Assembly (NCBI RefSeq): GCF_003018255.1
Contig: NZ_CP027440.1
DNA: 64,000 bases
Strand: one strand, 5' to 3'
Source of the DNA: Escherichia coli
GTDB taxonomy: Bacteria; Pseudomonadota; Gammaproteobacteria; Enterobacterales; Enterobacteriaceae
This document shows positions 23,478 to 29,975 of the stretch, piece by piece. The position numbers and the translations under genes were made by a program. The stretch's first letter is position 1. Each line of letters begins with the position of its first letter. A model generated the notes under the pieces. It worked only from the letters and a program-made list of their open reading frames with translations. It did no database searches and was not told where the DNA came from.

Positions 23478-24971
23478 ATGAGCGGAAAACCAGCGGCGCG
23501 TCAGGGAGATATGACTCAGTATGGCGGTCCCATTGTCCAGGGTTCGGCAGGTGTAAGAATTGGCGCGCCCACCGGCGTGGCGTGCTCGGTGTGTCCGGGC
23601 GGGATGACCTCGGGCAACCCGGTAAATCCGCTGCTGGGGGCGAAGGTGCTGCCCGGCGAGACGGACCTTGCGCTGCCCGGCCCGCTGCCGTTCATTCTCT
23701 CCCGCACCTACAGCAGCTACCGGACGAAGACGCCTGCGCCGGTGGGGATTTTTGGCCCCGGCTGGAAAGCGCCTTCTGATATCCGCTTACAGATACGCGA
23801 TGATGTACTGGTACTCAACGACAACGGCGGACGGAGCATTCACTTTGAGCCGCTGCTGCCGGGTGAGGCGGTGTACAGCCGCAGCGAGTCCCTGTGGCTG
23901 GTGCGTGGCGGTAAGGCAACGCAGCCGGACGGCCACACGCTGGCACGGCTGTGGGCGTCGCTGCCGCCGGATATCCGGTTAAGCCCGCATCTTTACCTGG
24001 CGACCAGCAGCGCACAGGGGCCGTGGTGGATACTGGGGTGGTCTGAGCGGGTGCCGGGTGCTGAGGACGTACTGCCAGCGCCGCTGCCGCCGTACCGGAT
24101 GCTTACCGGGCTGGCGGACCGCTTCGGGCAGACGCTGACGTACCGGCGTGAGGCCGCCGGTGACCTGGCCGGGGAAATCACCGGCGTGACGGACGGTGCC
24201 GGGCGGGAGTTCCGTCTGGTGCTGACCACGCAGGCGCAGCGGGCGGAAGAGGCCCGTAAACAGCACACCGCTTCCTTATTTTCCCCTGACACCCCCCGCC
24301 CTCTTTCAGACTCTGCGTTCCCCGACACACTGCCCGGTACGGAATACGGCCCCGACAGGGGCATCCGTCTTTCGGCGGTGTGGCTGATGCACGACCCGGC
24401 ATACCCGGAAAGCCTGCCCGGTGCGCCACTGGCGCGGTACACGTATACGGAAGCCGGTGAACTGCTGGCGGTATATGACCGCAGCAATACGCAGGTGCGC
24501 GCTTTCACGTATGACGCGCAGCACCCGGGCCGGATGGTGGGGCACCGTTATGCGGGAAGGCCGGAGATGCGCTACCGCTACGACGATGCGGGGCGGGTGG
24601 TGGAGCAGCTGAACCCGACAGGCCTGAGTTACCGCTACCAGTATGAGCAGGACCGCATCACCATCACGGACAGCCTGAACCGGCGAGAGGTGCTGCATAC
24701 AGAAGGCGGGGCCGGGCTGAAGCGGGTGGTGAAAAAAGAACTGGCGGACGGCAGCGTCACGCACAGCGGGTATGACGCGGCAGGAAGGCTCACGGCACAG
24801 ACGGACGCGGCGGGACGGCGGACAGAGTACGGCCTGAATGTGGTGTCCGGCGATATCACGGATATCACCACGCCGGACGGGCGGGAGACGAAATTTTACT
24901 ATAACGACGGGAACCAGTTAACGGCGGTGGTGTCCTTGACCCACGATATTCAGACAGTCGTTGTATCTTAA
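23478..24971 (+). pseudogene. rhsD: rhs (RhsD-like) N-terminal portion, interrupted by IS insertion
   Basis: MSGKPAARQGDMTQYGGPIVQGSAGV... Rhs N-terminus and YD-repeat core; frame runs into IS end and stops at 24971. Confidence 0.85.
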
Positions 24972-25849
24972 GTTGACGTTACCCGCTGACGTCGATATTC
25001 CCTTGGTGAGAGATAACCTAACGCACTATGCGGATGGGTTTCATTGTAATGCTCGATCGCCACTGCAAGGTTATGCAATGCCGTTCTTACATTCGGTTTC
25101 GGCATGAACGCGATGTAGTCTTCTTTCATCGTTTTCACGAACCTTTCTGCCATTCCATTGCTCTGAGGGCTACTGACTGCCGTTGTGCAGGGCTCCAGAT
25201 TCAACTCTCTGGCGAACTGCCGTGTTTCATGAGCTGTATAAGCCGAACCGTTATCAGTCAGCCACTGGATTGGCCGTTCCGCTCCTTTATCGCCAAAGCG
25301 TTTTTCTATTGCTCCTAACATGACATCCTGCACCGTTGCTTTGTCATAACCTCCCGTGCTTGCGGCCCAGTCTATGGCTTCACGATCGCAACAGTCCAGT
25401 GCGAACGTGACACGCAGTTTTGCGCCATCATCACAACCGAACTCAAAGCCATCGGAACACCAGCGCTGGTCGCTTTCCTTCACCGATATTCGGCCTTTAT
25501 GTTCCCGCTGCGGCCGTGAAGGTTTGTCATGTAACAACAACAGGTTATTTTCGCTCATTATCCGATAAACGCGCTTTGCATTCACGAACGGCACTCCTTT
25601 GTTACGGGACTGTCGTCTGAGAATGGCCCAGACACGACGATAGCCATATGTCGGCATATCGCTGATGATATCAAGGATACGTGCTAACACTTCCGCATCC
25701 GCAGCCTCATCACATCTGCGACGACGTTTATTCGGCTTATTACCAGATGTTTTCATCCGTTGTGCCAGTTGCGCACGCGACACGCCCAGAATACGGCTTA
25801 CCAGGGTTATTCCTTGTCCGTTGGCAACAAGGGCGCATGCGCTATCCAT
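24968..25849 (-). CDS. IS3-family transposase OrfB (DDE integrase core)
   Basis: 293 aa, recognised as IS2 InsD-like (recalled similarity). Confidence 0.85.
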
Positions 25850-26232
25850 TTTCGCGACTGACCATACTCCACCGCTTCTTTGAGGATCTCAACTTCCATG
25901 GTTTTCTTACCCAGCAAGCGCTGTAACTCTTTTATTTGTTTTATAGCGGCAGCCAGTTCTGAGGCAGGAACGACATCCTCTCCGGCAGCAACAGCAGTGA
26001 GACTTCCTTCCAGATATTGTTTTTTCCACTTAAACAACAGGCTGGGCTGAATACCATGCAAACGCGCCACATGGGACACCGTCATACCGGGTTCCATTGT
26101 CTGCTGAATAATGGCGATTTTTTCCTGAGGAGTTTTACGTTTACGAAGCTCCTGCCCCAGCAAAATTCCAGTCATCTCAAAATTAGCACTAGTAGACATA
26201 TATCCAAGCCTATCTCTTATTTTAAGATACAT
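25807..26232 (-). CDS. IS3-family transposase OrfA (HTH)
   Basis: recognised as IS2 InsC-like (...[10 protein letters not shown]...[13 protein letters not shown]...); overlaps orfB. Confidence 0.8.
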
Positions 26233-26263
26233 CCACTGTCTGGCGTTTCAAGGGGCCGGTTCA

Positions 26264-29038
26264 CAGTTAACGGCGGTGGTGTACCCGGACGGGCTGGAGA
26301 GCAGCCGGGCATATGATGAGCTGGACAGACTGGTATCGGAGACATCGCGCAGCGGGGAGACAGTACGCTACCGCTACGATGACGTGCACAGTGAGTTACC
26401 GGCGACGACAACGGATGCGACGGGCAGCACCCGGCAGATGACCTGGAGCCGCTACGGGCAGTTGCTGGCCTTCACCGACTGCTCGGGCTACCAGACCCGC
26501 TATGAATACGACCACTTTGGTCAGATGACGGCGGTCCATCGTGAGGAAGGCATCAGCACGTACAATACCTATAACCCGCGCGGCCAGCTGGTCAGCCGGA
26601 AAGACGCACAGGGCCGTGAAACGCGGTATGAATACAACGCCGCAGGCGACCTGACTGCCGTTATCACCCCGGACGGCAACCGGAGCGAGACACAGTACGA
26701 TGCGTGGGGAAAGGCGGTCAGCACCACGCAGGGCGGGCTGACGCGCAGTATGGAGTACGATGCTGCCGGACGTGTCATCAGCCTGACCAACGAGAACGGC
26801 AGTCACAGCGACTTCAGCTACGATACGCTTGACCGGCTGGTACAGCAGCGCGGCTTTGACGGGCGGACGCAACGTTATCATTATGACCTGACCGGAAAAC
26901 TCACGCAGAGTGAAGATGAGGGGCTTGTCATCCTCTGGTACTACGATGAATCGGACCGTATCACTCACCGCACGGTGAACGGCGAACCGGCAGAGCAGTG
27001 GCAGTATGATGGCCACGGCTGGCTGAGAGAAATCAGCCACCTGAGCGAAGGCCACCGTGTTGCCGTCCACTATGGCTACGACGATAAGGGCCGTCTGACC
27101 GGGGAGCGCCAGACGGTGGAGAACCCGGAGACGGGGGAACTGCTGTGGCAGCATGAGACGAAACAGGCATACAACGAACAGGGGCTGGCAAACCGCGTCA
27201 CGCCGGACAGCCTGCCGCCGGTGGAGTGGCTGGCCTATGGCAGCGGTTATCTGGCGGGCATGAAGCTGGGCGGGACGCCGCTGCTGGAGTACACGCGCGA
27301 CCGCCTGCACCGGGAGACGGTGCGCAGCTTCGGCAGCATGGCAGGCAATACAGCCGCATATGAACTGACCAGCACTTACACCCCCGCAGGCCAGTTACAG
27401 AGCCGGCACCTGAACAGCCTGGTGTTTGATTGTGACTATAACTGGAATGACAACGGCGACCTGATGCGCATCAGCGGCCCGCGACAGACGCGGGAATACG
27501 GCTACAGCGCCACGGGCAGGCTGGAGAGCGTGCGCACCCTCGCACCGGACCTGGACATCCGCATCCCGTATGCCACCGACCCGGCGGGCAACCGGCTGCC
27601 GGACCCGGAGCTGCACCCGGACAGTACACTCACAGTGTGGCCGGATAACCGAATCACCGAAGACGCGCACTACCTGTACCGTTACGATGAATACGGCAGG
27701 CTGGCGGAGAAGACGGACCGCATCCCGGCGGGTGTGATACGGACGGACGACGAGCGGACCCACCACTACCACTACGACAGCCAGCACCGCCTGGTGTTCT
27801 ATACGCGGATACAGCATGGCGAGCCACTGGTCGAGAGCCGCTACCTTTACGACCCGCTGGGCCGCCGGACGGGTAAACGGGTGTGGCGTCGCGGGCGTGA
27901 CCTGACAGGATGGATGTCGCTGTCGCGTAAACCGGAGGAGACGTGGTACGGGTGGGACGGCGACAGGCTGACGACGGTGCAGACTGACAGCACGCGTATC
28001 CAGACGGTGTACCAGCCGGGAAGCTTCACACCGCTCATCCGCATCGAAACAGACGTGACCGAACTGGAGAAAGCGCAGCGGCGGAGCCTGGCGGAGAAGC
28101 TCCAGCAGGAAGGGAGCGAGGACGGACACGGCGTGGTGTTCCCGGCTGAACTGGTGCGGCTGCTGGACAGGCTGGAGGAAGAAATCCGGACAGACCGCGT
28201 GAGCAGTGAAAGCCGGGCGTGGCTTGCGCAGTGCGGGCTGACGGTGGAGCAACTGGAAAAACAGGTGGAGCCGGAATATACACCGGCGCGAAAAGTTCAT
28301 CTTTACCACTGCGACCACCGGGGCCTGCCGCTGGCGCTTATCAGCGAAGACGGCAATACGGTGTGGAGCGCGGAGTATGATGAATGGGGAAACCTGCTTA
28401 ATGAGGAGAACCCGCATCATGTGTATCAGTCATACCGTCTGCCGGGGCAGCAGCATGATGAGGAGTCGGGGCTGTACTACAACCGGAACCGGTACTACAA
28501 TCCGTTGCTGGGACGATATATTACTCAGGACCCGATTGGGCTGGCGGGGGGATGGAGTCTGTATGCGTATCCGCTGAATCCGGTGAATGGTATTGATCCA
28601 TTAGGATTAAGTCCTGCAGATGTAGCGTTAATGCGAAAAAAAGAACAATTAAACCATCAAAGAGCATGGGATATATTATCTGATACTTATGATGATATGA
28701 AGAGATTAAATTTAGGTGGGACTGATCAATTTTTCCATTGTATGGCATTTTGTCGAGTGTCTAAATTAAATGACGCTGGTGTTAGCCGATCAGCGAAAGG
28801 GCTGGGTTATGAAAAAGAGATTAGAGATTACGGGTTAAATATGTTCGGTATGTACGGCAGAAAAGTAAAGTTATCCCATTCTGAGATGATTGAAGATAAT
28901 AAAAAAGACTTGGCTGTAAATGAACATGGGTTGACATGTCCATTAACACAAGATTGCTCAAATAGATGTATTGATTATATTAATCCAGAGCATAAAAAAA
29001 CGATAAAGGCTTTACAAGATGCTGGCTATCTCAAGTAA
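26264..29038 (+). pseudogene. rhsD: rhs C-terminal portion: YD-repeat core, DPxGL boundary, variable toxin tip
   Basis: reading frame resumes ...[14 protein letters not shown]... immediately after the IS; no native start codon. Confidence 0.85.
28610..29038 (+). other. Rhs C-terminal variable (toxin) domain, unrecognised family
   Basis: begins just after DPLGL (about 28595-28609); sequence turns abruptly AT-rich; His/Cys-containing ...[10 protein letters not shown]...[11 protein letters not shown]... Confidence 0.5.
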
Positions 29039-29510: not shown

Positions 29511-29877
29511 TTGCTTGAATTAAGAGTCTATCCCATATCGAAGTCGTCAACTTCGTAGTGAGGAAAAGTATAATCCCTGACTGAGAAAAGACATGTCGGC
29601 TATTGTGTAAAGCCATATAGCTCAGACGATGAATATCTACTCGTATTCAGTTGTTTATTGAGGGTGAGTTCCGACCCTGAAACAACAAATAAAATGAACA
29701 GCCAGAGAGTTTACATAGAATTGCACTGGTCTTTTACGATATCTGACATTGTGTAATACATATTCAGCCATGCATTAATTAAAATGTTACGTGTTTAATG
29801 TGAGTCCCTATCTGAAAATAAATAATCCTTCCGGATTAAAATAAATTCTCGCCGGGAAAGAAAGAGGAAATAAACCA

Positions 29878-29975
29878 TTAGCGGAAAACCAGCGGCACGC
29901 CAGGGTGACATGCCCCAGTACGGCGGCCCGATAGTCCAGGGTTCAGCGGGGGTACTGATAGTCGCGCCGACTGCA
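29878..29975 (+). pseudogene. orphan Rhs N-terminal fragment
   Basis: DNA near-identical to rhs 5' end (encodes ..PAARQGDMPQYGGPIVQGSAGV..) but ATG mutated to att. Confidence 0.5.

Follow-up and report, generated by a model that had tools for sequence, protein, structure and literature searches.

An IS2-related insertion in Escherichia coli rhsD with a 16-bp target-site duplication, and the probable preference of its clade for duplications of 15 to 16 bp

The window studied here is a 64,000-nucleotide stretch of Escherichia coli contig NZ_CP027440.1 (assembly GCF_003018255.1), in which an insertion sequence (IS) of the IS3 family, 1333 bp long and lying at 24931-26263 with its transposase genes on the minus strand, interrupts the core of an rhsD gene. 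The element is flanked by a 16-bp direct repeat of rhs sequence. A previous reading, made from the sequence alone, had noted that IS2-group elements normally duplicate 5 bp and had suggested that something unusual lay behind the long repeat, for instance recombination between two copies of rhs that each carried the IS. We found instead that the repeat is a true target-site duplication and ordinary for this element. It is, in our judgment, highly likely that the window holds an ordinary insertion with an ordinary 16-bp duplication, and that the clade to which the element belongs, together with ISEc48 and further relatives, characteristically duplicates 15 to 16 bp.

The repeat at rhsD and duplication lengths across the clade

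The borders of the element were set against independent E. coli copies (99.1 to 99.7% identity) from unrelated contexts, which share the start TGTCCTTGACCC and the end GGCCGGTTCA and bear out the ends proposed in the sequence-only reading. The junctions thus defined read ...AAC CAGTTAACGGCGGTGG / TGTCCTTGACCCACG ... GGGGCCGGTTCA / CAGTTAACGGCGGTGG TGTACCC... (slashes mark the IS borders), and the perfect flanking repeat is 16 bp, with a chance of approximately 2e-10 of a 16-nt exact match at both junctions. When both strands of the window were searched, the 19-mer CAGTTAACGGCGGTGGTGT was found in exactly two places, 24915-24933 and 26264-26282. The repeat of 16 to 19 bp described earlier on both sides of the element is therefore present, as 16 bp proper plus a coincident TGT; these three bases are native to rhs (codons GTG GTG TAC) and happen to match the IS at its first three positions. 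A duplication of 19 bp was considered and rejected, since TGT is part of the IS in all other copies. The earlier reading had also allowed that the true ends might leave a repeat of only 5 bp, and with the ends so placed the repeat is truly 16 bp.

Removal in silico of the IS and one 16-mer restored an intact rhs open reading frame (ORF) of 1403 codons. The reconstructed empty site could be aligned throughout (1200/1200), in one ungapped piece, to uninterrupted E. coli RHS core genes (best 97.8%), and the 16-mer occurs once, at the same position, in uninterrupted rhs genes. The locus is E. coli rhsD, with the gene order ybbP-rhs...mnmH-allS-allA-allR-gcl and 99.4% identity to the best genome. 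Two more empty sites, one in a plasmid DUF4198 gene and one in a plasmid carbohydrate porin gene, were matched in full, in a single piece and at 100% identity, and each has one copy of the 15-mer that is doubled around the IS. Because all three empty sites (rhs, DUF4198, and porin) carry the sequence once, the flanking repeat is a true target duplication. The insertion in the window is simple and recent, and the inserted element is probably still active. It has inactivated rhsD, and the biology of the window is otherwise ordinary.

A megablast search of 5426 complete E. coli genomes gave copies covering at least 80% of the query, at 99.1 to 99.7% identity, in 389 genomes, and the rhs flanks were absent from all matching copies in this collection; copies with at least this coverage are also present in roughly 1390 plasmids. 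Within the window, the element is present as a single copy. The first two independent E. coli copies examined were flanked by perfect 16-bp repeats of unrelated sequence. Across 13 independent repeat-bearing E. coli sites of this IS, the repeat measured 16 bp at seven and 15 bp at six. Similar lengths were found for its relatives: 15, 15, 15, 15, 16, and 14/15 bp for ISEc48, 16 bp for an element of Yersinia artesiana (from the group with 72 to 80% OrfB identity), 15 bp for one of Pantoea stewartii, 16 bp for one of Enterobacter asburiae, and 14 to 16 bp at approximately 15 sites of "Ca. Sodalis endolongispinus," where the rest of the approximately 50 copies had no repeats. Pooled over 34 independent sites with perfect repeats, the lengths were 15 bp (19 sites), 16 bp (13 sites), and 14 bp (2 sites). 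We refer to these elements, i.e., the window IS, ISEc48, and the relatives in Yersinia, Pantoea, Enterobacter, and Ca. Sodalis (72 to 100% OrfB identity), as the long-duplication clade. No target motif was recognized among 29 sites, which displayed a weak W/S...S/W tendency at the borders of the duplication (slashes mark the borders). This tendency was roughly symmetrical, with A/T as the flanking base in 22/29, G/C as the first duplicated base in 21/29 and as the last in 18/29, and A/T as the next base in 19/29.

Three E. coli loci of the window IS had no repeat, and one of them has a junction in common with a repeat-bearing copy. The missing repeats in some E. coli and Ca. Sodalis copies may be due to recombination between IS copies or to decay; for the latter host, the repeat-less copies suggest that either process has been extensive, as expected in a genome flooded with IS and rearranging.

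IS2-type relatives (62 to 66% OrfB identity), analyzed in the same locus set, served as a control and comprised IS2 in Klebsiella and Enterobacter and IS2-type elements of Aeromonas, Lonsdalea, and Pluralibacter. Repeats of 5 bp flanked 10 of these 13 copies, whose left inverted repeat (IRL) has the tip TAGAYTGG. The 5-bp duplication that the sequence-only reading had ascribed to the IS2 group was thus confirmed, and it also agrees with the literature, in which duplication lengths in the IS3 family follow the subgroup and are relatively conserved (4 bp in IS407, 5 bp in IS2, and 3 bp in the others; Kojima 2023, PMC10045372). In a midpoint-rooted neighbor-joining tree of OrfB, built with no outgroup from other IS3 subgroups, the long-duplication elements formed one clade, sister to the IS2-type elements, and the 15 to 16 bp predominating in this clade lie outside the 5-bp criterion of the IS2 subgroup. 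The literature searched, which did not cover ISfinder, yielded no description of duplications of 15/16 bp for ISEc48, the IS2 group, or any other member of the IS3 family; ISfinder may record the repeat length. The 16-bp repeats mentioned in the PluTI paper were set aside as they concern IS982.

Family, transposase genes, and variants of the element

IS3-family elements encode a DDE transposase with an rve domain and a DD(35)E motif, end in imperfect inverted repeats with TG...CA tips, and duplicate 3 to 5 bp. Their orfA and orfB genes partly overlap in frames 0 and -1 and are fused through programmed -1 frameshifting. Judged by its sequence, the window element belongs to this family despite duplications of 14 to 16 bp, because a 3- to 5-bp duplication is characteristic of the family and not defining. 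Its imperfect terminal inverted repeats of 41 to 42 bp with TG...CA tips (TGAACCGG... and ...AAGGACA) match IS3-family ends, and orfA and orfB overlap by 43 nt in relative frames 0/-1. OrfB has the catalytic residues D133, D199, and E235, with 35 residues from the second D to the E. The conceptual OrfAB fusion contains the Pfam domains HTH_Tnp_1, HTH_21, rve, and rve_3, and it passed NF033516, the NCBIfam equivalog for the IS3 family, with 278.6 bits against a cut-off of 160. The best NCBIfam subfamily matches were IS2 TnpB (410 against a cut-off of 597) and IS2 TnpA (171 against 229), both below cut-off. The earlier description of an IS2-like element with two transposase ORFs splitting the rhs core holds. 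The coordinates of the features are collected in Table 1. For orfA, an in-frame ATG upstream, at 26232, is a possible alternative start.

Table 1. Features of the interrupted rhsD locus and of the inserted element (window positions; IRR, right inverted repeat)
Feature	Position	Strand	Basis or remark
rhsD-type RHS core gene, 5' part	23478..24930	+	ORF and alignment to intact rhs
Target-site duplication, left copy, CAGTTAACGGCGGTGG	24915..24930		Adjoins IRR end; single-copy in uninterrupted rhs genes
Complete IS, ISEc48-like relative of IS2	24931..26263	-	Ends set against independent copies; family models; Pfam
IRR, ~41 bp	24931..24971	-	Tip in transposase orientation ...GGGTCAAGGACA-3'; IRL/IRR alignment
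orfB, 293 aa, DDE catalytic part; HTH_21, rve, and rve_3	24968..25849	-	Pfam; catalytic residues
Presumed -1 frameshift site CGA AAA TGG (A AAA slip)	25846..25854	-	Positional homologue of A AAA AAG in IS2
orfA, 122 aa from MTGILLGQ..., HTH_Tnp_1 DNA-binding/regulatory protein	25807..26175	-	Start as the RefSeq start in identical copies
IRL, ~42 bp	26222..26263	-	Tip 5'-TGAACCGGCCCCTTGAAAC; IRL/IRR alignment
Target-site duplication, right copy	26264..26279		Adjoins IRL end
RHS core gene, 3' part	26280..29038	+	Joined to 23478-24930, gives one 1403-codon ORF

It had been remarked in the sequence-only reading that the orfA/orfB overlap lacks an obvious A-rich slippery heptamer, and this was correct. 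In place of the A AAA AAG/A of IS2-type elements, TCR CGA AAA TGG is conserved at the homologous site across the long-duplication clade (seen in the window element and in copies L004, L009, L016, L021, L039, and L098). A single-tRNA slip on A AAA would yield the fusion ...GQSRK/MDSACALV (slash at the fusion point), parallel to the IS2 fusion, and identical copies are annotated with "programmed frameshift" by RefSeq. From the conserved arrangement of the frames and this annotation, OrfAB is predicted to be made through a -1 slip at A AAA. The two clades have also kept GGATAGCGCAYGCGCCCTTGTTGCC, downstream of the frameshift site, which might act as a stimulatory structure.

The closest characterized prototype is IS2, which is 1331 bp long. 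It shares with the window IS the orfA/orfB layout, 41/42-bp inverted repeats, the inner motif CCAGACA, and 63% OrfB identity, but differs in its 5-bp duplication, in its IRL tip (TAGACTGG, not TGA...), and in having the canonical A AAA AAG/A heptamer. ISEc48 is closer, with ~88% identity in both nucleotide sequence and OrfB, a length of 1336 bp compared with 1333 bp, the same inverted-repeat architecture with TG...CA tips, the CGA AAA T frameshift region, and duplications of 15/16 bp in the sample analyzed; an identity of ~88% over the full length makes it a relative of the window IS, not an isoform or the same IS. The name ISEc48 was taken from plasmid annotation by the Prokaryotic Genome Annotation Pipeline (PGAP; "IS3-like element ISEc48 family transposase"). 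Copies of the window IS carry only the generic PGAP name "IS3 family transposase," and a look-up of exact-protein clusters gave no ISfinder name for them.

Several variants were noted along the way. The window IS is known in a 1333-bp form (the window, L002, L091, and L096) and a 1336-bp form (L001, L085, L088-L090, and others), which differ by a 3-bp indel. An apparent 1325-bp variant (L107/L108/L111/L112), located beside a gene for a phage-type integrase, is not flanked by a repeat. An internally deleted relative of ~1.14 kb (~90.6% identity), annotated as "DDE-type integrase/transposase/recombinase," is present in many E. coli chromosomes at similar positions (H112-H122; e.g., NZ_CP029164.1 930054-931190). 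The Ca. Sodalis endolongispinus relative (74% identical) reaches more than 50 copies in one endosymbiont genome (L010-L077, contigs NZ_JAFJYC01000000x), and in one of these copies (L012, locus 1584-1595) the IRL tip, TGATCTTGCCCC, is an exact inverted copy of the IRR tip, GGGGCAAGATCA, in place of the usual TGATTTATCCCC, so that the ends are symmetrical. On Shiga toxin-producing E. coli (STEC) plasmids pRM7190-2 and pRM10042-2, L003 and L084/L086 have the IRL-side junction TCGGTTAAAAGGGCC... in common and differ in the IRR-side flank; L084 retains a 15-bp duplication that L003 has lost, which points to IS-mediated rearrangement in the O91 plasmid lineage. Finally, a 95-nt stretch of the window (29877-29971), located downstream of an rhs immunity-like ORF, matches the beginning of the rhs ORF (its first 95 nt) at 79% identity and may be an orphan rhs fragment.

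Two duplication lengths from one enzyme and how they may arise

A short duplication was also found within the clade. One ISEc48 copy, in p3R-1 (L097; NZ_CP049349.1 88311-90226, IS at locus 301-1636), is flanked solely by GTATC. When the site was rebuilt without the IS and with GTATC once, more than 500 plasmids matched it over its full length, uninterrupted and at 100% identity, and the 5-bp duplication is therefore genuine. The transposase annotated for this copy, WP_085948175.1, is identical to the protein of a copy with a 15-bp duplication. Since the same transposase protein leaves 5 bp here and 15 bp elsewhere, ISEc48 probably uses two discrete staggers, 10 to 11 nt or one turn of B-DNA apart. 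A second copy, of an ISEc48-like element (L101; CP098976.1 12397-14132, IS at locus 201-1536), is flanked by a 4-bp repeat, ATAG, only; its empty site was not found in the plasmid collection, and the copy may represent a second event of the short mode or chance.

Such classes have been described outside the IS3 family, whose conserved lengths are set against them in PMC10045372. For IS481, IS1202, and the eukaryotic IS481EU elements, duplications fall into classes of ~4 to 6, 15 to 17, and 24 to 29 bp, "close to 10 bps apart" and sometimes within one element, and the authors had "no clue" how the longer ones arise (PMC10045372); the same point on long duplications is made in a paper on the IS1202 family (PMC10132070). 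Like the long-duplication clade, these elements have DDE integrase-like transposases, TG...CA ends, and classes approximately one helical turn apart, and in IS481EU-7_TV short and long duplications come from one enzyme, as in ISEc48 here. They differ from the clade in belonging to other families, in having single-ORF transposases, and in their 24- to 29-bp class, which was not seen in the clade.

With some reserve, we lean toward the view that a monophyletic IS2-like branch, with members across Enterobacterales, switched its predominant stagger from 5 to 15 to 16 nt, i.e., by one extra helical turn, and that the same enzyme still occasionally uses 5 nt. Transposition would probably be of the copy-out/paste-in type, by analogy with other IS3-family members, leading from a figure-eight through a minicircle to integration, and the -1 slip on A AAA would supply OrfAB. 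During integration, the phosphates attacked by the two 3'-OH ends would lie 15 to 16 nt apart in the target, not 5. Such a spacing would exceed the ancestral IS2 stagger by one B-DNA turn (~10.5 bp) and keep both attacks on the same face of the helix, and repair of the resulting gaps would produce the long duplication. At low frequency, the element could still use the ancestral 5-nt geometry.

When the transposases of the two groups were compared, the linker that joins HTH_21 to the rve core proved to differ in a clade-specific way, with 2 aa deleted ~15 residues ahead of the first catalytic D and 1 aa inserted; a further insertion, of 2 aa, lies more upstream. In OrfA, clade-specific substitutions in the recognition helix match the changed tips of the inverted repeats. 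The linker indels, the OrfA helix-turn-helix, and the inverted-repeat tips are candidate determinants of duplication length.

Several points weigh against the explanation given here as a whole, from the clade-typical duplication to its mechanism. The 5-bp mode rests on one verified case and one unverified case of 4 bp. No repeat flanks roughly half of the copies in Ca. Sodalis and a few of those in E. coli. The frameshift motif is a tetranucleotide only, and the production of OrfAB is thus inferred; likewise, the stagger is deduced from the duplications. Nor was any minicircle or tandem junction found that would show the end-to-end spacing. Head-to-tail IRR-IRL junctions were not found in the E. 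coli genomes, the top "joined" places being internally deleted copies with a span of 0.9 to 1.1 kb, and IRR-N(0-30)-IRL had 0 matches in the metagenomes scanned, although absence from assemblies is uninformative. A scan of viral contigs with the IRR tip also gave 0 matches.

It could also be that the duplication, though real and typical of the clade, has an origin other than a wider concerted stagger, for example, if one IS end joined the target first and a second joining or nick took place approximately one turn further on, if the outer and not the inner subunits of a transposase tetramer were used, or if a small target loop formed. That the same element leaves 5 or 15/16 bp, and that the length wobbles between 14 and 16 bp, would suit such a scheme, with alternative complexes or subunit usage of the kind speculated on for IS481EU (PMC10045372). 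However, the narrow distribution of lengths and the perfect identity of the repeats favor a geometrically fixed, transposase-determined spacing over an untemplated host process, and the sequence data do not discriminate among the different versions of this explanation, which we regard as unlikely on the whole.

Far less probable is the proposal that two IS copies inserted ~11 to 16 bp apart, in two rhs copies or in sister chromosomes, and that homologous recombination between them then created an apparent long duplication. E. coli rhs cores are indeed multi-copy and highly similar (median of 3 places per genome), and recombination between IS copies does occur in this family, L003 and L084 having one junction in common while the other differs. 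The same rare double event would, however, be needed at 34 unrelated sites and would always have to give 14 to 16 bp, and most of these sites lie in single-copy plasmid or prophage genes. Moreover, the window has one IS copy and one full rhs, and the site without the IS and intact rhs are perfectly colinear. The site survey has effectively refuted this explanation. The atypical event suggested by the sequence-only reading, i.e., recombination between IS-bearing rhs copies, is not supported by the typical 15- to 16-bp repeats at the 34 sites, the single-copy empty sites, or the restored rhs ORF, and we reject it; a 16-bp repeat is the normal footprint of the clade.

Least plausible, to the point of being negligible, is a repeat unrelated to transposition, whether intrinsic to the YD-repeat-rich rhs gene or an assembly artifact at the IS borders: rhs genes are internally repetitive and weaker 14-mer relatives lie nearby (a third copy with 86% identity), but the exact 16-mer is found at the two junctions only and once in uninterrupted rhs genes at this position, and repeats of this length recur across species and in many finished assemblies that are independent of one another.

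Meaning for the IS3 family

The length of the target duplication serves to diagnose the family and subgroup of an insertion sequence and reflects how the strand-transfer complex is arranged in space. For the IS3 family, it has been treated as fixed at 3 to 5 bp, with 5 bp for the IS2 subgroup, and here a clade that is common in E. coli and on plasmids makes 15 to 16 bp. Tools for IS annotation and detection that expect short duplications will mis-call the ends of its members or flag them as artifacts, and long repeats flanking these elements should not be taken for scars of rearrangement. The clade further offers a natural experiment on a question left open in PMC10045372, namely, how the duplications made by integrase-like transposases come to fall into discrete classes separated by one helical turn. 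If the switch of stagger is true, the quantized duplication lengths of IS481, IS1202, and IS481EU would extend into the IS3 family, and they could be studied in E. coli, in an element that is genetically tractable, can be compared with the 5-bp IS2 (63% identity), and has few candidate determinants.

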